Of a stretch of DNA of 64,000 bases, positions 1,093 to 52,529 are shown piece by piece. Source of the stretch: a bacterium (lineage in GTDB: Bacteria; Patescibacteriota; JABMPQ01; JAUVWW01). The notes beneath the pieces were generated by a model that saw nothing but the letters and a program-made list of their open reading frames with translations, was not told where the DNA came from and ran no database searches. Location: NCBI GenBank assembly GCA_030603885.1, contig JAUVWW010000001.1, forward strand, positions 2,680-66,679, given 5' to 3'. Positions within the stretch are counted from its first letter, which is position 1; every line of letters starts with the position of its first letter. Made by a program: the position numbers and the translations under genes.

Positions 1093-1140
1093 AATCATCT
1101 AAACATATAATACATAACATGTAACATATAATGCTGTTCC

Positions 1141-1617
1141 ATGAATTCAAAAGGTTTTACTCTCATTGAAACCCTCATTGTCATAACCATCATTGGTATT
1201 CTGGCTGTGGTTGGTTTTATTTCTTATACTTCTTTTCAACGTTCAATTGAGATAGAATCTGTGGCAAGGCAGACAGTAGATACTTTAAGAGAAGCTCAAA
1301 GCAAAACTATGGCTGGAGAGGAGCTATCTCAGTGGGGAGTCCATTTTGAAACAGATAAGTTTGTTTTGTTTTATGGATCAAGCTACGATCCTAACGAATT
1401 AAAGAATCAGGTAAATGGATTGTCTTCCGCGGTCAAGATAAGTAATATTACTTTGAGTGGGGGAGGGAGTGATGTTGTTTTTGATAAGCTAGAAGGAACT
1501 ACTTCAAACTTTGGTACAGGAGCTAATGATGCAGCTTTGCGAGTAGAATTGGCGACTCAATCTTCTACTTATAAAACAATCACTATTACCCAAGTAGGAA
1601 AGATAAATATAGAATAA
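1141..1617 (+). CDS. Type IV pilin (prepilin-type N-terminal cleavage/methylation domain)
   Basis: N-terminus MNSKGFTLIETLIVITIIGILAVVGF matches the class III signal G|FTLIE with Glu at +5, followed by a hydrophobic helix. Size 158 aa. Confidence 0.8.
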   Translation: MNSKGFTLIETLIVITIIGILAVVGFISYTSFQRSIEIESVARQTVDTLREAQSKTMAGEELSQWGVHFETDKFVLFYGSSYDPNELKNQVNGLSSAVKISNITLSGGGSDVVFDKLEGTTSNFGTGANDAALRVELATQSSTYKTITITQVGKINIE

Positions 1618-3576: not shown

Positions 3577-4086
3577 ATGAAAAAATTAACTAAGACAAAG
3601 GGTTTTACCCTCATTGAGCTCCTCATTTATATTGCTATTCTCGTCTTTGTTTTAGTCCTTGTCTCTGGAATGATAGTAATCACTTTGCATACCCGGGATC
3701 GTATAAAAGTTACCACAGAAGTTCAGCAGAATTTGATATTCTCCATCGAGAAAATAGCTTATGCTACGAGAAAAGCTTTAGATGTAAATTTACCAGATGA
3801 TAATTCTTCTGGTTCTACTTTAAGTCTAGCCATGGCAGATGCGGATGTTAATCCTACGGTCTTTAGTGTCTCGGATGGGGTTCTCCAAATAAAAGAAGGA
3901 ACGAGTGATGTTCAAGATCTAACTACAGACAAAGTTACAGTTTCATCTATCATCTTTTATCAAGTCAACAACACAGGGGCAAAACCAACAGTTCAGATTA
4001 GCTTAGCCATTGACTACAATGCCGGAGGAAATCCTTATCTTCAAGCCTCGTCCTCCAGGCAGACAACAATATCATTGAGACAATGA
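3577..4086 (+). CDS. Prepilin-type pseudopilin / minor pilin
   Basis: N-terminus MKKLTKTKGFTLIELLIYIAILVFVLVLV (G|FTLIE motif plus TM helix). Confidence 0.7.
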   Translation: MKKLTKTKGFTLIELLIYIAILVFVLVLVSGMIVITLHTRDRIKVTTEVQQNLIFSIEKIAYATRKALDVNLPDDNSSGSTLSLAMADADVNPTVFSVSDGVLQIKEGTSDVQDLTTDKVTVSSIIFYQVNNTGAKPTVQISLAIDYNAGGNPYLQASSSRQTTISLRQ

Positions 4087-4517
4087 AAAGTTACAAGTTA
4101 CAAGTTACAAATTACAAATTACAGTGGGGTATCGCTGCTCTTCCTGCTATTTTAGCTATCTCAGCAATAATCTTAATTATTGGTCTGGCTATTGCTTTTT
4201 CTGGAAGAGTGGAAAGTAGTATTTCAGCCAGTCACAGAGATTCTGGTATGGCTTTTCATGTTGCTGAAGCAGGAATTCATGACGCTGAAATAAAAATTGT
4301 AAGAAACCCAGATTTTGAAGACCTGGTAGGCTATACATTGACTGTTGGTGATGGAACTACTACAATAACGGTGGATAAAGACGTACCCTCTTCAGGAAAA
4401 ACTACTATTATATCCCAAGGAGAAGTTAAAAACATAAAACGCAAGATAAGAGTAATTGTAGATGTAGATCCTCAAGGGAAGGTGACTTTGTATTCTTGGG
4501 AAGAAATGACTGATTAG
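4083..4517 (+). CDS. Minor pilin-like protein (PilX-like N-terminal domain)
   Basis: Hydrophobic N-terminal helix AALPAILAISAIILIIGLAIAF, then SxxxSxxHRDSGMAFHVAEAG resembling PilX_N. Overlaps the upstream stop (ATGA). Start region carries a heptanucleotide tandem repeat. Confidence 0.5.
   Translation: MKSYKLQVTNYKLQWGIAALPAILAISAIILIIGLAIAFSGRVESSISASHRDSGMAFHVAEAGIHDAEIKIVRNPDFEDLVGYTLTVGDGTTTITVDKDVPSSGKTTIISQGEVKNIKRKIRVIVDVDPQGKVTLYSWEEMTD
4089..4123 (+). repeat. Tandem heptanucleotide repeat (AGTTACA)x3 + (AATTACA)x2 inside the first 14 codons of the minor pilin gene
   Basis: Sequence agttaca agttaca agttaca aattaca aattaca read directly. The 7-nt unit is not a multiple of 3. Confidence 0.85.
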
Positions 4518-4586
4518 CTTATCGCCTATCGCACATCGCTTATCGCAGTTCGATTAGTGATAAGCAATTAGCCATAAGTAAGTATT

Positions 4587-6083
4587 ATGAGAGTATTCGA
4601 TCTACTAATTCCAAAAGAACGAATATTTGGTCTTGAAATCCAAGAAAGCAGGCTTAGAGCAGTACTTTTGCATTCTGTAAGACAGAAGGTAGTTTTGATC
4701 TCTTCAGGCGAAATAAGACTAAAAAAAGACACTATCATTAAGGGGAAAGTAAAAGATAAAAAAGCATTGATTTTAGCTTTAAGAAAATTGTTTAGGGCAG
4801 CAAAACCCTCTATAAAAACCCCTTATTGTATAGTCTCTCTTCCAGAATCTCTAGTCTTTACTCAAACTTTCCAGTTTCCACCTCTACCCCAAGAACAAAT
4901 CACACAGGCTATTAAATCTGACGTTTCTTTATTTCCCTATCCGCTAGATAAAGCTTACATGGATTGGCAAGAGGTAAAAGCACCAAATATTGAGGGTAAA
5001 ATAGAGTTGCTCATAGCCCAAGGCCCAAAAAATAAAATCGATCCTTATCTTGAAGCCCTAGATGAAGCTGGGTTAATACCCATAGCTTTTGAAATGCCTT
5101 CTATTAGTCTTTCTCGTATCGTGGACAAACCTCAAAAAGGAGCTTCTCTAGGTATTTATTTAACCCAAGATGGCATTGTTAGTTTGGTTTTTAAAGAAGG
5201 TGATCTGAGATTTGGTCGTTTTTTGAGCTTTAAAGAAGAAATACCTAAGGTAGAAAAAATAGATATCCAATCAGATGAGGTTAGAAAAACTTTAGTAAAT
5301 GAAATTAGAAGAGTTATCACTTTTTATCAATCCCAAAGGAAAGTCAAGGTCTCTTTCTCTTCTATTTTTATTTGTGGAGAGAAAGGCAAAATTTCTAAAC
5401 TAGCCAAGTATGTAACTGGTCAGCTTCAGATAAAAACATCTCAGGCCCAAGCTTTTATTAATATTAAAAAAATAGATTTTATTAAAGAGGATTCCTCTTG
5501 GCTGCCAGTCGTAGGATGTGCTCTTAGAGGTCTTGTTTCTCGCAAAGAGGATAATTTTATTAGTCTTTTGCCCGTAGGTACTGAAGAGGCTTACGAGACT
5601 AAGAAAAGGGTAGCCTTTGCTTCACTTTGGGGCAATATTATTACCACTCTGACAGTGGTTTTGGTAATCATCTTTGTTAGTATGTGGTTTTTACTTCATT
5701 ATCTCGTTCAGACTACAGACGAACAGTTGAATTTGCGTGCTCAAATTCCTATCCCTGAAGAAACATCAAGGCTAGAGACAGAGGCTTTAGAATTTAATGA
5801 AAGAATAGAGATAATGAAGGAAATACAAAAAGATATTTTACCTTTCTCGCCTATATTGGCTGAGATTAAAAATCTTATTCCAGAGGGTATAACTTTGAAT
5901 GGCCTTAATATTTTCTCTAAAGAGGCCGAGGTGATACTTCAAGGTAAGGCAGACACAAGAAAGCATCTTATTGCTTTAAAAGATAATCTTGAATCTTCTT
6001 TATTGTTTAAGAGTATAAACATGCCTCTGGCTAGCATAGAAAAGAAAGAAAACATTGAATTCAACATTTCTTTTAGTTTTTAA
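4587..6083 (+). CDS. pilMN: Type IV pilus assembly PilM-PilN fusion protein
   Basis: N-terminal ~330 aa is actin-like PilM (IFGLEIQESRLRAVLL...). An internal TM helix (IITTLTVVLVIIFVSMWFLLHYL) is followed by a PilN-like periplasmic region. Lies between pilin genes and pilO. Confidence 0.65.
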   Translation: MRVFDLLIPKERIFGLEIQESRLRAVLLHSVRQKVVLISSGEIRLKKDTIIKGKVKDKKALILALRKLFRAAKPSIKTPYCIVSLPESLVFTQTFQFPPLPQEQITQAIKSDVSLFPYPLDKAYMDWQEVKAPNIEGKIELLIAQGPKNKIDPYLEALDEAGLIPIAFEMPSISLSRIVDKPQKGASLGIYLTQDGIVSLVFKEGDLRFGRFLSFKEEIPKVEKIDIQSDEVRKTLVNEIRRVITFYQSQRKVKVSFSSIFICGEKGKISKLAKYVTGQLQIKTSQAQAFINIKKIDFIKEDSSWLPVVGCALRGLVSRKEDNFISLLPVGTEEAYETKKRVAFASLWGNIITTLTVVLVIIFVSMWFLLHYLVQTTDEQLNLRAQIPIPEETSRLETEALEFNERIEIMKEIQKDILPFSPILAEIKNLIPEGITLNGLNIFSKEAEVILQGKADTRKHLIALKDNLESSLLFKSINMPLASIEKKENIEFNISFSF

Positions 6084-8719: not shown

Positions 8720-8746
8720 TTAGCACTCTCAAAGTCGGAGTGCTAA
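8720..8746 (+). promoter_or_regulatory. CIRCE operator (HrcA binding site), perfect consensus
   Basis: TTAGCACTC-tcaaagtcg-GAGTGCTAA, a 9-bp inverted repeat with 9-nt spacer, read directly. 16 nt upstream of the hrcA start. Confidence 0.9.
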
Positions 8747-8761
8747 TCTTAAACCATTATC

Positions 8762-9448
8762 ATGAATACTCGAAAAAAGGCTATTTTAAAGGCAATAATT
8801 AAAGAGTATGTGGATACTGCTGAGCCAGTAGGGTCTTCTATTCTGGTTAAAAAGTATAATTTTGGTATATCTCCAGCTACTATAAGAAATGAGATGGCAG
8901 AATTAGAAAAAAGAGGATATCTAGGCCATCTTTATACATCCTCAGGAAGGGTACCTACAGATAAAGGCTATAGATATTTTGTGGATGAATTAATAGAGAA
9001 AGAGGTTTTAGGTTTAAGAGAAAAGACAAGAATAGAAAGACTTCTAAATCTCAAGGTCGATCAGCTAGTTAGACAAACCACCAAAGTTTTAGCCTCCTTA
9101 GCTCATAATTTAGCCATCCTCGATTTAGAAGACGAATTTTGGGAAGTAGGCTTTGAAGAACTTTTTGCTCAGCCGGAGTTCGAAGATATAGGAGAAATCA
9201 AATGTATTTCCAAAATTTTAGACAACCTAGAGGATGATTTTGAAAAACTATTTCAAGAGACAAAAGGAGAACTGAATATTTATATAGGAGAAGAAAACCC
9301 CTTAAGAGGAATGGAAAATTGTAGTATAATAATAACCAAGTTGAGAAAAGGAAAGTTAGGAATTTTAGGTCCCAAAAGAATGAGATACGCTCGGAATAAG
9401 TCATTGCTAGATTTTACCAGTAAGTTGTTGGATAAAGTAATTAAGTAA
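8762..9448 (+). CDS. hrcA: Heat-inducible transcription repressor HrcA (short form, 228 aa)
   Basis: N-terminal winged helix ILKAIIKEYVDTAEPVGSSILVKKYNFGISPATIRNEMAELEKRGYL is typical of HrcA. CIRCE upstream, grpE/dnaK downstream. Confidence 0.85.
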   Translation: MNTRKKAILKAIIKEYVDTAEPVGSSILVKKYNFGISPATIRNEMAELEKRGYLGHLYTSSGRVPTDKGYRYFVDELIEKEVLGLREKTRIERLLNLKVDQLVRQTTKVLASLAHNLAILDLEDEFWEVGFEELFAQPEFEDIGEIKCISKILDNLEDDFEKLFQETKGELNIYIGEENPLRGMENCSIIITKLRKGKLGILGPKRMRYARNKSLLDFTSKLLDKVIK

Positions 9449-11889: not shown

Positions 11890-11967
11890 TAATTAAACAT
11901 ACTAATATTCAAACATGCTAACATACTAACAAATGTTAGAATGTTGAATTGTTAGAATGAAAAATCT

Positions 11968-15037: not shown

Positions 15038-15108
15038 TGGGTCCATAGGGAATCGAACCCTAGTAGCTAGCTTAAAAGGCTAGTGTTCTACCATTGAACT
15101 ATAGACCC
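15038..15108 (-). tRNA. tRNA-Lys (anticodon UUU)
   Basis: Reverse complement GGGTCTATAGTTCAATGGTAGAACACTAGCCTTTTAAGCTAGCTACTAGGGTTCGATTCCCTATGGACCCA folds as a cloverleaf: 7-bp acceptor, D-arm GTTC/GAAC, anticodon stem CTAGC/GCTAG with loop CTTTTAA, and T-arm TAGGG-TTCGATT-CCCTA. No encoded CCA. Confidence 0.85.
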
Positions 15109-21684: not shown

Positions 21685-22276
21685 AAAACAACTTATTTTA
21701 GATCTTCATCGTATTGGTGCAGTTAAGTTTGGCCAATTTATTTTAAAATCAGGTATGTCTTCTCCTATTTATATTGATCTAAGGGTAACTGTTTCCTACC
21801 CAGAGGTTTTAGAAAAAATTGCTTTAACCATGATGGAAAAGATGAAAGATCTAAAATGTGACATTATTGCTGGCATTCCCTATACTGCTTTGCCTATTGC
21901 TACTGTTATTTCCATAAAAACAAAAACTCCTATGATTTATGCTAGAAAAGAAACAAAAGAATATGGAACAAAAAAGCAAATCGAGGGAGTCTTTAAAAAA
22001 GGAGATAAATGTTTAATTGTTGATGATTTAATAACCACTGGTGAAAGCAAGTTCGAGACAGCCAAACCTTTTCAAAAAATAGGTCTTATAATCAAAGATT
22101 TTATTGTTTTAGTTGACAGAGAGCAGGGTGGAAAAGAACAATTACAAACTAAAGGATATAACTTATACAGTATTATCACTATCTCAGAACTTTTAGATGT
22201 CCTAAAAAAAGAAGGGAAAATTACTCAAGAGCAGTTTTTAAAGACTAAAAAGTTTATTGAGGAGAATAAAATATGA
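21677..22276 (+). CDS. pyrE: Orotate phosphoribosyltransferase
   Basis: PRTase motif LIVDDLITTGES. Start placed at ATG 21677, overlapping the pyrC stop by 8 nt, rather than the listed 21611. Confidence 0.85.
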   Translation: MDKKQLILDLHRIGAVKFGQFILKSGMSSPIYIDLRVTVSYPEVLEKIALTMMEKMKDLKCDIIAGIPYTALPIATVISIKTKTPMIYARKETKEYGTKKQIEGVFKKGDKCLIVDDLITTGESKFETAKPFQKIGLIIKDFIVLVDREQGGKEQLQTKGYNLYSIITISELLDVLKKEGKITQEQFLKTKKFIEENKI

Positions 22277-45838: not shown

Positions 45839-45936
45839 CTGTAGCTCGCTCAAGAGCCTCGTTGCTCAGGAAGGAATCCTCCCGCCTTCGGTGGGCCCCT
45901 CCTAACTCAACCTCGGCAGGAATGGCTCGCTAGGAT
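45839..45936. other. About 100-bp GC-rich non-coding island (candidate structured RNA or element) upstream of secD
   Basis: Roughly 60% GC in an otherwise AT-rich genome. No start codon in any forward frame. Internal direct repeats (gctcgct x2; cctcg..caggaa x2). Possible cccgc-cuucg-gtggg hairpin. Confidence 0.3.
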
Positions 45937-45951
45937 AGTAAATTATTTATT

Positions 45952-48497: not shown

Positions 48498-49550
48498 ATG
48501 CAAGAAAAACGACTACAAACAATTCAAGGAACAGATCCAAAAGAGGCAGTTGTTAGGCTGCTTAATGGCCTTGAAAAAAGATCAAAGGATATTATTATCC
48601 GACGTTTTGGATTGGAAGAAAAACCTAAAGAAACCTTAGAGAAAATTGGCCAATCTTATGGAATTACTCGAGAAAGGGTACGTCAGATTGAAGACAGCGT
48701 CTTAGCTAGTCTGCAAAAACCAAACAAATTAAAATATGTAAAGTCTCTTGAGGAAACCTTAATATCTGTACTAGAAGATAAAGGTGACATCGCAGAAAGA
48801 AATACTTTGTTCTCTTCTATTCAAAGCAAACTTTCTTCAGATATTCACCCCAATGTATTAGAGTTTGTTTTGGAACTTTCCCCAAAATTTACTAAATTTG
48901 CCGAAACCAAAGAACTCAAGCAAGCTTGGGCTACATCAACCTCCAGTCTTATAAAAGTCAAGAAAGTTATTGGAGGTTTCATAGATTACTTAAAAGAGAA
49001 AAATAAAGTGCTTGATACTCGGACAATGATAAATGCAGTTCAGGAAAATGCAGATGTTTCTCGAGATGCAATTTTGTCTTACATTAATTTATCAAAGAAC
49101 ATTAAAAAGAATCCCTATCATGAATGGGGACTTAAAGATTGGGGAACTATTTCACCTCAAGGAGTAAAAGATAAAGCATATATTGTCCTTATTAAGAAGA
49201 AAAAACCTCTTCACTTTAGAGAAATTACAGAGGCAATAAATCAAATAGATTTTGATAAAAGAAAAGCCACCTCCCGTACGGTACACAATGCTCTAATTAA
49301 AGATCCAAGATTTGTTTTAGTAGGAAGAGGTACTTATGGATTGACTGAGGCTGGATATAAACCAGGAACAGTGGCTGATATAGTAGCCGACGTATTAGCT
49401 AAATGCTCCCTAACAAGAGAAGAAATTATCCACGAGGTTCTAAAGCAAAGGTTGGTAAGGAAAAATACAATTCTTTTAGCTTTACAAGATTCTTCTAAAT
49501 TTAAGAAAGTAGGGGAGAAGTACTACTTGAATACAAAAATAAAAAGTTAA
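48498..49550 (+). CDS. Putative transcription factor: N-terminal sigma-70 region-4-like HTH plus C-terminal HARE-HTH-like domain
   Basis: IIIRRFGLEEKPKETLEKIGQSYGITRERVRQIEDSVLASL matches the sigma-70 r4 consensus. C-terminus HFREITEAINQI...RTVHNALIKDPRFVLVGRGTYGLTE matches the HARE-HTH pattern (RpoE-delta N-domain). Confidence 0.6.
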   Translation: MQEKRLQTIQGTDPKEAVVRLLNGLEKRSKDIIIRRFGLEEKPKETLEKIGQSYGITRERVRQIEDSVLASLQKPNKLKYVKSLEETLISVLEDKGDIAERNTLFSSIQSKLSSDIHPNVLEFVLELSPKFTKFAETKELKQAWATSTSSLIKVKKVIGGFIDYLKEKNKVLDTRTMINAVQENADVSRDAILSYINLSKNIKKNPYHEWGLKDWGTISPQGVKDKAYIVLIKKKKPLHFREITEAINQIDFDKRKATSRTVHNALIKDPRFVLVGRGTYGLTEAGYKPGTVADIVADVLAKCSLTREEIIHEVLKQRLVRKNTILLALQDSSKFKKVGEKYYLNTKIKS

Positions 49551-49557
49551 TTCACGA

Positions 49558-49581
49558 AACTTGTAACTTGTAACTTGTAAC
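49558..49581. repeat. Tandem heptanucleotide repeat (ACTTGTA)x3, reverse complement of the AGTTACA repeat at 4089-4123
   Basis: aacttgtaacttgtaacttgtaac read directly, between the stop of the HTH gene and the next ORF. Extra degenerate copies (gttacacg, agttacaag) at 49611-49638. Confidence 0.85.
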
Positions 49582-49591
49582 CCAAGAAATT

Positions 49592-50932
49592 TTGGTAGAG
49601 GGCTTGAGCTACACGTTACACGATTCGAGTTACAAGATCATGGTCGAATATTATCAGCCAACCTATGAGACCCCAGAGGAGCTTTTTGCTTTCTGGCTTT
49701 ATATTTTACGTTATACCTGGTGGGTATTTATATTAGTTGTTATATTTATTATTTGGTATGTCTGGTTTCGAAGGAAAAGACTGCAATATTTAGATTCCAT
49801 AGACTATATACTTTTAGCTATTGATGTCCCTGAAGAAAATACAAAAAATCCAAAATGTTTTGAACAAATATTTGCTGGTCTTCATGGCATTAAAACTACT
49901 CCCAATTTTGTAGAAAAATATTTTCAAGGAAAGATGCAGGAACCCTTTTCTTTAGAGATTGTAGGCATTGCTGGAAGAATAAGATTTTTAATCAGAACGC
50001 CTGATTATTATAGAGATCTTGTTGAGGCCCAGGTCTATGCCCAATATCCAGAGGCAGAAATTACTGAAGTAGAAGACTATGTTCAATTTATACCTTCTGA
50101 TTATCCTAATGACAAATATGATCTTTATGGAACAGATTTTGTACTAACCAAAGAAGATGCCTATCCTATAAGAAGTTATGAAGCTTTTCAAGACGAATTG
50201 AATAAAGAGGGTTTTCTTGATCCTATGGCTGCCATAACAGAAGTGCTATCTAAGTTGACTGAAGGAGAGCAAATCTGGCTCCAGTTTATTATTAGACCAA
50301 CGGGAGATAAATGGAAGGCTAATGGGGAAAGACTGGTTAAAAAGCTAATCGGGGCAAGAGCTCCGGAACATGAAGGTATTTTTCAGAAAACGTTTGTTAG
50401 GGGAATTCAGACTGCCCAGTATGCTTTAGAAAAGGGATTTATGAGTGTTCCAGAAGCAGAAACTCACTATAAGCCAGAGCCTCCTCCTTCTCTGATGCAG
50501 TATTTATCCCCGGGAGAAAGGGAAGTGGTGGAAGCCATAGGGCGCAATATTTCAAAGATAGGATTTGATGTAAAATTTAGGTTTATTTATGTAGCTAAGA
50601 AAGATGTTTTTTCAAAAAAGCACGGAGTGAATCCAATCAAGGGAGCGATGAAACAATTTAGTACAATTAATTTAAACGGATTTAAAGAATGTCTTAGGGT
50701 AAGAACTAAGGCGGTGTATTGGTTTAAAAAGAGAAGGATAGCCCAGAGGCAGAGAAGGATAATTCAGGCTTATAAGTTAAGAAGAATGGAAGTAGGAGCT
50801 CATCCCTTTGTCTTTAATACAGAGGAGCTAGCCACTGTTTTCCATTTTCCTTATATTACAGTGGAAGCCCCAACTATTAAATGGACAGAGACGAAGAAAG
50901 GAGAGCCGCCAAGGGATTTACCTCTTAGATAA
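49592..50932 (+). CDS. Membrane-anchored protein of unknown function, partner of the downstream ATPase
   Basis: N-terminal TM hairpin (LFAFWLYILRYTWWVFILVVIFIIWYVWF), then a roughly 380-aa soluble domain. The true start may be the second Met at 49640. Confidence 0.45.
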   Translation: MVEGLSYTLHDSSYKIMVEYYQPTYETPEELFAFWLYILRYTWWVFILVVIFIIWYVWFRRKRLQYLDSIDYILLAIDVPEENTKNPKCFEQIFAGLHGIKTTPNFVEKYFQGKMQEPFSLEIVGIAGRIRFLIRTPDYYRDLVEAQVYAQYPEAEITEVEDYVQFIPSDYPNDKYDLYGTDFVLTKEDAYPIRSYEAFQDELNKEGFLDPMAAITEVLSKLTEGEQIWLQFIIRPTGDKWKANGERLVKKLIGARAPEHEGIFQKTFVRGIQTAQYALEKGFMSVPEAETHYKPEPPPSLMQYLSPGEREVVEAIGRNISKIGFDVKFRFIYVAKKDVFSKKHGVNPIKGAMKQFSTINLNGFKECLRVRTKAVYWFKKRRIAQRQRRIIQAYKLRRMEVGAHPFVFNTEELATVFHFPYITVEAPTIKWTETKKGEPPRDLPLR

Positions 50933-50963
50933 ATTAAAAGTCTAGAGTCCAAAATTAAAAGTT

Positions 50964-52529
50964 ATGCCTGATGGTAATCAACTAACAATATTCGCCGAAA
51001 CAAACTTCCGCAATGTCCGGACCAAATTTGGTATTAAGCCAGATGATCGTCGTCGGCATATGTATATTATTGGAAAGACAGGAATGGGAAAGACTACCAT
51101 GCTGGAAAATATGGCTATTACTGATATTCAGGCAGGTCGAGGAGTGGGTATTGTTGATCCTCATGGTGAATTTGCAGAAAAAATGCTAGATTTTGTTCCC
51201 CCAAGTAGAATTAATGATGTAGTTTATTTTAATCCAGCAGATGTTGACTATCCCATTGCCTTTAATGTTATGGAAAAAGTTGATCCTTTACATAAGCATT
51301 TAGTGGCCTCGGGCATGATTGGAGTATTTAAAAAAATCTGGGCTGATTCTTGGGGACCTCGTTTAGAATATGTACTTAGAAATGCTATTCTAGCCCTTCT
51401 TGATTACCCAGAATCAACTCTTTTGGGAATTATGAGAATTTTGGTGGACAAGGCTTTTAGAAAGAGGGTAATTAGACAAATTAAAGATCCAGTAGTAAAG
51501 AGTTTTTGGGTGGATGAGTTTTCTCGCTATCCAGATAGGTTTCAGGCAGAAGCCATTGCTCCTATACAAAATAAAGTAGGTCAGTTTTTATCTACTTCTT
51601 TAATAAGAAATGTGGTTGGTCAGACTAAGTCTACTATTGATATGTCAGATATTATCAATAATAGAAAGATATTAATTCTAAATTTGGCCAAAGGAAAAAT
51701 AGGAGAAGACTCATCTGCTCTTATGGGAGCTATGTTGATTACTAAAATACAGCTTGCAGCCATGGAGAGAGTAGCTATTCCAGAAGAAAAAAGAACAGAT
51801 TTTTATCTTTATGTGGATGAATTTCAAAATTTTGCTACTGAGGCTTTTGCTAATATTCTATCTGAGGCAAGAAAGTATCGATTAGATCTTATTCTAGCTC
51901 ATCAATACATTACTCAGATGGAAGAGACGGTTAGGGATGCTGTCTTTGGCAATGTAGGAACTTTAGTCTGTTTTAGGGTAGGAGCAGCTGATGCCGAATT
52001 TTTAGAAAATGAGTTTATGCCAACTTTTACTATGAATGATTTGGTGAATTTAACTAAATATAATGTCTATCTAAAGCTGATGATTGATGGAGTAGCTAGT
52101 CATGCCTTTTCTGCTATCACTTTACCTCCTTTATCGACTGCTGCTTTTAAAGGGCATAAAGATAAGATTATTAAAGTTTCTCGAGAAAGATATACTAAAT
52201 CCCGAGTTGAAATAGAAGAAAAGATTGCTCGATGGTCTGGAATGGAGGCTAGGCCAGAAGAAGAAGGTGAAACAGAGATGGAAGTTCCAAGCGTAAAGTA
52301 TAAAGAGAAACCATTTCCACCCACCAAAGCTCCTTTTCCCGAAAAGGGAACACATAAACCATTTAAGAAAGCTTTTAAGAGGGTTTTAGAAAAAAAGAAG
52401 GAAATACCAGAAAAAATAGAAGCACCTCCTAAACCCACTCAAGGCGAAGCACGGGGTATACCAGAGCCTCCTCCCATTAGAAAGTCTGAAAAACAGATAA
52501 AGCCAGGGGAAGTGGTGGAGTTTGAGTAG
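50964..52529 (+). CDS. P-loop NTPase of the TraD/VirD4/TrwB coupling-protein / HerA-FtsK superfamily (no TM anchor of its own)
   Basis: Walker A IIGKTGMGKTT. IVDPHGEF (DPxGE motif of T4SS ATPases). VVYFNPAD (coupling-protein-like vFdP.d). Walker B YLYVDEFQNF, then LILAHQYITQ...GNVGTLVCFRVG. Low-complexity Pro/Lys-rich C-terminal tail. Confidence 0.6.
   Translation: MPDGNQLTIFAETNFRNVRTKFGIKPDDRRRHMYIIGKTGMGKTTMLENMAITDIQAGRGVGIVDPHGEFAEKMLDFVPPSRINDVVYFNPADVDYPIAFNVMEKVDPLHKHLVASGMIGVFKKIWADSWGPRLEYVLRNAILALLDYPESTLLGIMRILVDKAFRKRVIRQIKDPVVKSFWVDEFSRYPDRFQAEAIAPIQNKVGQFLSTSLIRNVVGQTKSTIDMSDIINNRKILILNLAKGKIGEDSSALMGAMLITKIQLAAMERVAIPEEKRTDFYLYVDEFQNFATEAFANILSEARKYRLDLILAHQYITQMEETVRDAVFGNVGTLVCFRVGAADAEFLENEFMPTFTMNDLVNLTKYNVYLKLMIDGVASHAFSAITLPPLSTAAFKGHKDKIIKVSRERYTKSRVEIEEKIARWSGMEARPEEEGETEMEVPSVKYKEKPFPPTKAPFPEKGTHKPFKKAFKRVLEKKKEIPEKIEAPPKPTQGEARGIPEPPPIRKSEKQIKPGEVVEFE

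Follow-up and report, generated by a model that had tools for sequence, protein, structure and literature searches.

A short tandem array of heptanucleotides was found inside the first codons of a PilX-like minor-pilin gene, in a window of 64,000 nt from a bacterium of the Patescibacteriota (assembly GCA_030603885.1, contig JAUVWW010000001.1, positions 2,680 to 66,679 of the forward strand; coordinates below are those of the window unless another locus is named). The array is probably, if by a modest measure, the orphan right arm of a hairpin element occupying stop-to-start junctions in genomes of the Candidate Phyla Radiation (CPR), absorbed in frame into a pilin leader tolerant of changes in length. 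The first-pass annotation of this DNA had proposed a slipped-strand phase-variation switch. Our data give no sign so far of switching, and the array, which is not a demonstrated ON/OFF switch, is best explained as a liability, prone to slippage and held in frame through selection.

The array (4089-4123) consists of three AGTTACA units followed by two AATTACA units. Tandem Repeats Finder (TRF) reported it at 4088-4123 with a period of 7, 5.1 copies and 96% matches, its score of 58 being the highest in the window. When self-matches were scored at lag 7, the array reached 25, whereas 200 shuffles that preserved dinucleotides gave 8.5 +/- 1.1 and at most 13. The five tandem heptamers first described in codons 3-14 are thus borne out by the sequence, by TRF and by the shuffle test. 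The same applies to their recurrence in reverse complement at 49558-49581, where TRF found (AACTTGT)x3.4 with 100% matches; these are the only two arrays of the window with a lag-7 score of at least 10. Only three AGTTACA units are perfect and consecutive, the array being interrupted by a G>A variant. The (AGTTACA)n strand is open in all three frames, and the complementary (TGTAACT)n, which is the intergenic orientation seen at 49558-49581, carries TAA in all frames. No inverted partner was found within 300 nt of the array, the only complementary array being 45 kb away, and the local RNA fold around it was not structured (z +0.55); a local-hairpin reading was rejected on both counts. A promoter reading was also rejected, as no sigma-70-like site overlaps 4089-4123.

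The host gene lies in a type IV pilus operon with the order PilB, PilC, pilins, PilX-like gene, PilMN and PilO, and its product combines a short charged leader, a Gly and a hydrophobic helix. The start codon, ATG at 4083-4085, and the stop codon of the upstream pilin gene, TGA at 4084-4086, overlap, and no Shine-Dalgarno (SD) sequence precedes the start; the array begins 3 nt past this overlapping ATGA, that is, at a stop-to-start junction. The N-terminus reads MK-SYKLQVTNYKLQ-WG and continues with IAALPAIL. No in-frame ATG, GTG or TTG occurs between the array and the conserved G16-IAALP, and because no alternative start precedes Gly16 the array is necessarily translated. Since the 7-nt unit is not a multiple of three, a unit change in this obligatorily coding array would frameshift the gene, as the first-pass annotation had pointed out. 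On a reading of the sequence, one or two units gained or lost would suffice, and translation of a four-unit allele would end at a stop about 21 codons in. Of the 58 open reading frames (ORFs) of at least 70 aa called in the surrounding window (37% G+C), 56 are on the plus strand; the minus strand has only two, of 81 and 83 aa, both short and overlapping ORFs of the plus strand.

The label 'PilX-like' holds only at the level of the family. The window protein had no Pfam or NCBIfam match, PilX_N (PF14341) being absent even at E 10, and for its orthologue P0002 the PilX_N match (E 0.027) fell below the cut-off. Among 34 aligned homologues, however, 6 match this domain (best E 1.3e-7). Searches of PDB sequences returned nothing informative. 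The family has more than 1000 homologues. Orthologues are conserved from Gly16 onward. At least 90% of the 34 aligned sequences have this nearly invariant residue, which is followed in the consensus by a hydrophobic A-A-L-P stretch. In contrast, the stretch before the hydrophobic segment ranged from 0 to more than 50 residues, with a median of 13, among the 119 of 150 family representatives in which that segment could be located; leaders as such measure from 4 to more than 50 aa. Several leaders carry 7-aa periodic or core-derived N-termini (P0191, P0147, P0163, P0165, P0214, P0152 and P0250). Heptamer-derived segments are visible in the protein sequences of P0191 (NSRFQIPDSRFQIG) and P0147 (SVISYWLSVKNY), the leaders YTLHAS and YTLYAD of P0163 and P0165 derive from a 21-nt core shared between elements and described below, and the called N-terminus of P0214 is ILHFAFCILHF. 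Judged from these sequences, heptamer arrays at the 5' end of PilX-like family genes recur in other CPR genomes. Most such leaders are decayed (P0147, P0163, P0165), as would be expected of passive absorption more than of tracts maintained for hypermutability.

An element was defined as a direct array of units of about 7 nt, a loop and an inverted array no more than about 80 nt away, which together fold into a stable hairpin at a stop-to-start junction and of which the right arm borders on the start of the downstream gene. The array at 4089-4123 has the direct repeats and the junction position and lacks the inverted partner; it is an 'orphan arm' and not a full element. A complete hairpin is present at the orthologous junction of loci L006 and L007, whose PilX-like protein is 77% identical to that of the window and whose pilin and PilX-like genes do not overlap. 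There, the left part of the spacer starts at TAA and runs through TAT into the units CATGTAA, CATGTAA and CATGTAG and a terminal CAC, before a loop AAGGGAT; the right arm reads GTG, TTACATG, TTACATG, ATTCGTG and TTACATG, then AAAAAAGGT (KKG-IAALP). The predicted hairpin has a free energy of -34.5 kcal/mol (z -6.2). In a MAFFT alignment the window array lies over the right arm of this element. Relative to the ATG AAA AAA GGT of L006/L007, the window carries 36 additional nt (35 + 1), or 12 codons, and the ATTCGTG variant unit is missing from its array. The translation start of the window is unstructured, whereas that of the orthologue is placed inside a predicted hairpin of -34 kcal/mol.

Both loci carry a second, longer element upstream of the neighbouring pilin gene. 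Its last ATG is the canonical start (MKKG-FTLIE), and its loop contains an SD-like AAGGATT. Six of the nine substitutions separating L006 from L007 fall inside the two elements, as if gene conversion had copied one onto the other. The LVIVD-repeat pilin gene and the following pilin gene adjoin directly in the window (0 nt) and are 105 nt apart in L006; each of the two L006 elements is either missing from the window or changed there.

The second array of the window belongs to a complete element, E1, situated between the HARE-HTH and DUF8128 genes. Its left arm is (CTTGTAA)x3 at 49560-49580, the reverse complement of the unit at 4089-4123, and its right arm reads GCTACAC, GTTACAC, GATTCGA and GTTACAAG, followed by ATC ATG (predicted fold -24.3 kcal/mol, z -1.8). 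The last right-arm unit, TTACAAG, is the unit of the PilX array, and the left arm fits the latter better than its own degenerate right arm. Compared with CATGTAA/TTACATG, the left-arm A>T and the T>A of the last right-arm unit are compensatory. E1 is missing from L055, a relative of 89% identity, in which a 9-nt spacer is found instead. The right arm includes the window's only copy of the 21-nt core of L006, TTACATGATTCGTGTTACATG; none would be expected by chance. This core is identical or one base off in CPR genomes of different phyla, with G+C contents from 39 to 50%, and is usually preceded by (CATGTAA)-like arrays. The pattern TTACAYGATTCGWGTTACA with flanking (CATGTAA)-like left arms was found in Saccharibacteria, the 'Patescibacteria group', Paceibacterota, Roizmanbacteria and further metagenome contigs. 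A binding factor, horizontal spread or the start-codon-bearing unit may keep the core constant. A mobile or phage origin of the core was rejected, as viral contigs gave 0 matches. Twenty-seven Pelagibacteraceae matches to the 19-nt pattern were set aside as one conserved unrelated locus, and matches in Acutalibacteraceae and Oceanococcus as chance, about 17 chance matches being estimated for the size of the database; the inspected examples of these set-aside matches had no flanking heptamer arrays. The operon at 48498-52529 encodes, on the two sides of E1, a protein with Sigma70_r4 and HARE-HTH (helix-turn-helix) domains and a DUF8128 membrane protein, as well as a TrwB/TraD-like coupling ATPase; this trio is conserved in the CPR, and DUF8128 has more than 1000 homologues in Patescibacteria. 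The labels of DUF8128 homologues (Patescibacteria or Parcubacteria) and the genomes that bear the motif make it likely that the organism is a CPR bacterium.

From these comparisons we infer that the PilX-like gene may once have been preceded by a complete element. When the start moved to the ATG overlapping the stop, the left arm and loop would have been lost, and the five units left (35 + 1 nt, or 12 codons) would be read through as an N-terminal leader. Such an insertion would be tolerated because leader length before the conserved Gly is highly variable across the family, the leader presumably being cleaved after Gly16, and out-of-frame slippage products would be removed by selection; the remnant itself may have no dedicated function. 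The TTACAAG unit held in common with E1, an element that carries the family core, supports this descent. Several points weigh against it. No intermediate genome with a complete TTACAAG-unit hairpin upstream of the PilX-like gene was found, and the right arm of L006 consists of TTACATG units, about two thirds of the aligned bases agreeing. Three perfect units and two perfect variant units look like recent local expansion and not like an old remnant. The lack of substitutions in the array in six strains is compatible with constraint but not significant, about 0.5 changes per strain being expected. Finally, the recurrent heptamer-derived leaders of the family could reflect selection for such tracts.

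Conservation of the array was assessed in the window and five further assemblies (L001 to L005) from five samples (Logan SRR34846495, SRR34846496 and SRR7716471; JGI 3300022538 and 3300022539), which differ from the window by 0.8-1.8% over 1.2-7.5 kb. The variation in repeat number expected of the proposed switch was not seen: unit number and order (3+2) are identical in all six assemblies, without even an in-frame variant of plus or minus three units, and the sole change beside the array is 4125 T>A (W15R). Contigs from the five samples cross the array unbroken and with the same junction, which is weak evidence on length heterogeneity. No truncated or OFF allele was found among 5.8 billion clustered proteins, which held only three clusters, all full length (144, 139 and 141 aa). 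In more distant orthologues the AGTTACA unit is missing and the mature N-terminus stays conserved; together with the invariance among strains, this makes up most of what the first-pass annotation had said would speak against a switch. Neither GTDB genomes nor JGI metagenomes yielded orthologous loci in a search via PilX alignment, and exact look-ups of the neighbouring pilin, PilMN and HARE-HTH proteins gave no record. Variation is seen, however, in sister arrays of 2-6 units. In a Roizmanbacteria rplK-rplA spacer, L046 differs from L044 and L047 by exactly one ACACGAA heptamer in the left arm and is otherwise identical over 1181 nt, and a left arm differs by 21 nt, or three heptamers, between L006 and L007, which are separated by 9 substitutions in 2890 nt (0.3%). 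Slippage is therefore real in this array family, and none is visible at the coding copy. What stands of the switch claim is its frameshift logic and the instability of sister arrays.

A contingency locus, in which slipped-strand gain or loss of units would frameshift the PilX-like gene and turn the minor pilin, and perhaps pilus function, ON or OFF in a subpopulation, nevertheless deserves consideration. The non-triplet unit sits obligatorily in the coding sequence of a surface-organelle gene, its tract lies far beyond chance and above the 3-unit threshold used for heptanucleotide simple sequence repeats (SSRs) of H. influenzae (PMC2651432), sister arrays shift by whole units (by one with no other difference, by three at 0.3% divergence), and other family members have heptamer-derived leaders. 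However, unit number and order do not change across at least five samples, no OFF allele is known from the protein database, three perfect units in a row with a G>A interruption contrast with the 13-38 units of described heptanucleotide switches (PMC2651432), and the mostly decayed leaders of the family are unexpected for maintained hypermutable tracts; we consider such a locus unlikely. Slightly less probable still is neutral local slippage, by which a functionless array unrelated to the hairpin elements would have expanded in place in leader-coding DNA. Perfect units in a simple 3+2 pattern and the lack of a nearby inverted partner would suit this explanation, and heptamers are the commonest long SSR class in prokaryotes according to Mrazek 2007, as cited in PMC4679880. 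It leaves aside that, of about a thousand unit classes, the same heptamer forms the only other strong array of the window, inside a family element, and that a heptamer right arm at the orthologous position in L006/L007 aligns with the array.

The array may also act at the RNA level, either as an unstructured (AGUUACA)n landing pad for the ribosome or S1, or through pairing in trans with the (CUUGUAA)3 arm of E1, carried 45 kb away on another plus-strand transcript, which would mask codons 3-9. The region is unpaired in the predicted fold, the start overlaps a stop and lacks an SD sequence, and array and E1 are perfectly complementary over 21 nt (-31.7 kcal/mol for the duplex; -49.8 for the cofold versus -33.9 kcal/mol for separate folds), the left arm of E1 being predicted to pair better with the PilX array than with its own right arm. 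Binding of S1, Csp or CsrA-type proteins has been proposed for heptamer repeats near SD-less starts (MacGregor, PMC4679880). Yet E1 is lineage-specific, being absent in L055, orthologues manage without the tract, and complementarity is automatic if both arrays descend from one element family, so that this explanation appears to us doubtful, and a little more so than local slippage. A DNA inversion is hardly credible. The arrays at 4089-4110 and 49558-49581 (21-24 bp) contain perfect 21-nt inverted repeats 45 kb apart, between which recombination would flip 45 kb and split the body of the PilX-like gene from its start, but 21 bp is short for homologous recombination, the nearly uniform plus-strand layout would be overturned by such an event, and contigs from five samples share the same junction; no recombinase was noticed beside either array, although no systematic search was made. 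We give the same low credence as to local slippage to a broader speculation, according to which fast-evolving CPR stop-to-start hairpins with a cross-phylum 21-nt core would gate the translation starts of genes for pili and other functions, the PilX copy being a 'split' element that is phase-varying or masked in trans by E1. If true, it would couple minor-pilin expression to another operon.

Table 1. Coordinates of the arrays, elements and genes discussed; positions are those of the window unless a locus is named.
Feature	Position	Strand	Remarks
Heptamer array, 5 units	4089..4123	+	(AGTTACA)x3(AATTACA)x2, codons 3-14 of PilX-like gene
PilX-like minor-pilin gene, 144 aa	4083..4517	+	ORF call; pilus operon context; family-level PilX_N matches
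Leader-coding part of PilX-like gene	4083..4130	+	M1..G16 = MKSYKLQVTNYKLQWG, before conserved hydrophobic IAALPAIL
Upstream prepilin gene	3577..4086	+	MKKLTKTKG-FTLIE; stop overlaps PilX-like start (ATGA)
Major-type pilin	1141..1617		
LVIVD-repeat pilin, 640 aa	1654..3576		
PilM-PilN fusion	4587..6083		
Degenerate heptamer array	1093..1140	+	AACATAT-like x4; pilC-to-pilin spacer; without inverted arm; z 0.0
Element E3	4510..4586	+	PilX-like stop to PilMN start; TTATCGC-like x4 (degenerate) and inverted GTGATAAGC arm; hairpin
8-nt-unit hairpin	11890..11967	+	(CTAACATA-like)n then (TGTTAGAA-like)n; -18.5 kcal/mol, z -4.5
Element E1	49551..49639	+	Stop of HARE-HTH/sigma-r4 gene to ATG 49640 of DUF8128 gene
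21-nt core copy	49616..49636	+	TTACACGATTCGAGTTACAAG, 3 mismatches to core TTACATGATTCGTGTTACATG
Two heptamer-array hairpins	L006 111-216, 724-785; L007 687-771, 1279-1340		Flank a 177-aa pilin gene of a related species
Single-unit slippage polymorphism	L046 ~560-644; L044 8590-8678; L047 2650-2738		Roizmanbacteria rplK-rplA spacer, MFZQ01000013
Core-bearing loci	L010, L043; L021, L035; L032; L040; L045; L049/L054; L053		L010, L043 Saccharibacteria; L021, L035 Patescibacteria group; L032 Paceibacterota; L040 Roizmanbacteria

Beyond the PilX junction, inverted-array hairpins form a wider family, common in CPR genomes and spread over several phyla, whose units differ from element to element. In the window, E3 (Table 1) has a predicted fold of -24.9 kcal/mol (z -3.1) and is missing in L006, where the spacer has 3 nt. 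The 8-nt-unit hairpin stands directly before ATG 11968 and has the architecture of the heptamer elements with a different period. The degenerate array at 1093-1140 holds three differences from strains L002 and L003. Units found elsewhere include ACTGACA/TCAGTTG (L035), GAATTTT/AATTCCA (L054), TGATAAT/TTATCAG (L055) and CCAAAAT/TTGGAAT (L043). Predicted folds had z values from -3.1 to -6.7 for L035, L055, E3 and the 8-nt-unit element (-5.7 to -6.7 for L035 and L055), and the L054 element was predicted at -32.0 kcal/mol, a value without shuffle control. A/G variation in left arms faces U, and in E3 the change 4558 T>C of L002/L003 turns a G.U pair into G-C; both point to a constraint on plus-strand RNA. 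Elements are also gained or lost at orthologous junctions between sister lineages, presence or absence being observed for E1 against L055, for E3 against L006 and for the LVIVD-pilin junction against L006. Period-7 arrays numbered 29 in 134 kb of CPR loci and 1 in 208 kb of Pelagibacter control loci, a comparison biased by the choice of the CPR loci via the heptamer motif. Rfam held no family for the elements, yielding in the window only a tRNA and weak miRNA-hairpin noise, and literature searches found no paper describing CPR inverted heptamer-array hairpins.

A different kind of hairpin was seen upstream of secD, where the G+C-rich spacer 45839-45951 contains a UUCG-loop hairpin, CCCGCCTTCGGTGGG (core 45881-45895). 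A near-identical hairpin, CCCGCCTTCGGCGGG, lies inside the loop of the L035 heptamer element (L035 160-200), and the orthologous secD spacer of L055 has the TGATAAT/TTATCAG heptamer hairpin instead.

Phase-variation tracts in leader-coding DNA are well represented by the CTCTT repeats of Neisseria opa genes and the poly-G tract of pilC. Like such SSR contingency loci, the array studied here lies at the 5' end of a surface-structure gene and has tandem units that are not triplets, so that a unit change causes a frameshift. In H. influenzae, heptanucleotide SSRs are found in hmw promoters, and a tract of AATTTTG x14 lies inside hmw1A (PMC2651432). Described loci have long, perfect, strain-variable tracts (13-38 heptamers in H. 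influenzae, PMC2651432) and OFF alleles, whereas the 3+2 units found here are invariant in six assemblies and have no OFF allele.

A closer parallel is offered by the TAACTGA heptamer direct repeats of marine Beggiatoaceae, cyanobacteria and some Bacteroidetes (MacGregor 2015, PMC4679880). As here, they form short 7-nt arrays (2-6 copies) a few nt from starts, in spacers that mostly lack an SD sequence (PMC4679880). In the forward orientation they carry stops in three frames and are intergenic; in reverse they are sometimes absorbed at ORF ends, where they encode a 7-aa periodic peptide (PMC4679880). The two arrays of the window follow this orientation rule. The units TAACTGA and TAACTTG (CAAGTTA in the present case) are alike but not identical, and the P0147 leader SVISYWLSV looks TCAGTTA-derived, recalling these repeats. 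In contrast to them, the units found here vary by element and genome, the arrays typically form inverted pairs giving long hairpins, the hosts are CPR bacteria, and the array at 4089-4123 comes after the start codon and not before it.

The cyanobacterial short tandemly repeated repetitive (STRR) heptanucleotides, the repetitive extragenic palindromic (REP) sequences with their bacterial interspersed mosaic elements (BIME) and the Rickettsia palindromic elements are likewise short repeats or palindromes of intercistronic spacers that can form hairpins in mRNA, and those of Rickettsia are tolerated in frame inside coding regions. To our knowledge, a build of inverted arrays with variable heptamer units, set exactly at the boundary of stop and start codons, has been described for none of them; a literature search on STRR repeats gave no match. 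No link to a transposase or to a REP-associated tyrosine transposase (RAYT) was seen here, no search having been aimed at one. In its workings the array comes closest to the TAACTGA-type repeats, with a looser likeness to the STRR, REP/BIME and Rickettsia elements, but it is a member of none of these families because its unit differs and the inverted-array build is undescribed there.

A central part in the host attachment and DNA uptake of CPR bacteria is generally attributed to type IV pili. If true, an ON/OFF switch of a minor pilin would give the CPR its first proposed contingency locus; the evidence gathered does not support one. Inverted heptamer-array hairpins placed exactly between stop and start are a more interesting lead than the coding array, as they would represent a new layer of gene regulation in small CPR genomes if they control translation or mRNA processing.

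These elements also call for caution in annotation, since gene callers often run ORFs through the ORF-compatible arm and produce spurious leaders such as MLHDSCY.... Right arms read as ORF were observed at L006 172-216 and 762-785, at L035 3298-3321 (reverse-strand coordinates) and at 49592-49639 of the window, and spurious N-termini produced by gene callers or the longest-ORF rule include MLHDSCYM..., MLHDSCYMFHDSCYM... and MVEGLSYTLHDSSYKIM.... For the DUF8128 gene, comparison with L055 places the start at ATG 49640.

Some further features of the window stand apart from the arrays. A perfect CIRCE operator, TTAGCACTC-N9-GAGTGCTAA, lies at 8720-8746 upstream of hrcA (8762..9448) and is preceded by a TTGACA-type promoter-like sequence, an ordinary heat-shock regulon arrangement. 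A tRNA gene at 15038-15108 is the sole gene on the minus strand backed by more than an ORF call, and a pyrE-like ORF using an upstream TTG start covers 21685-22272.

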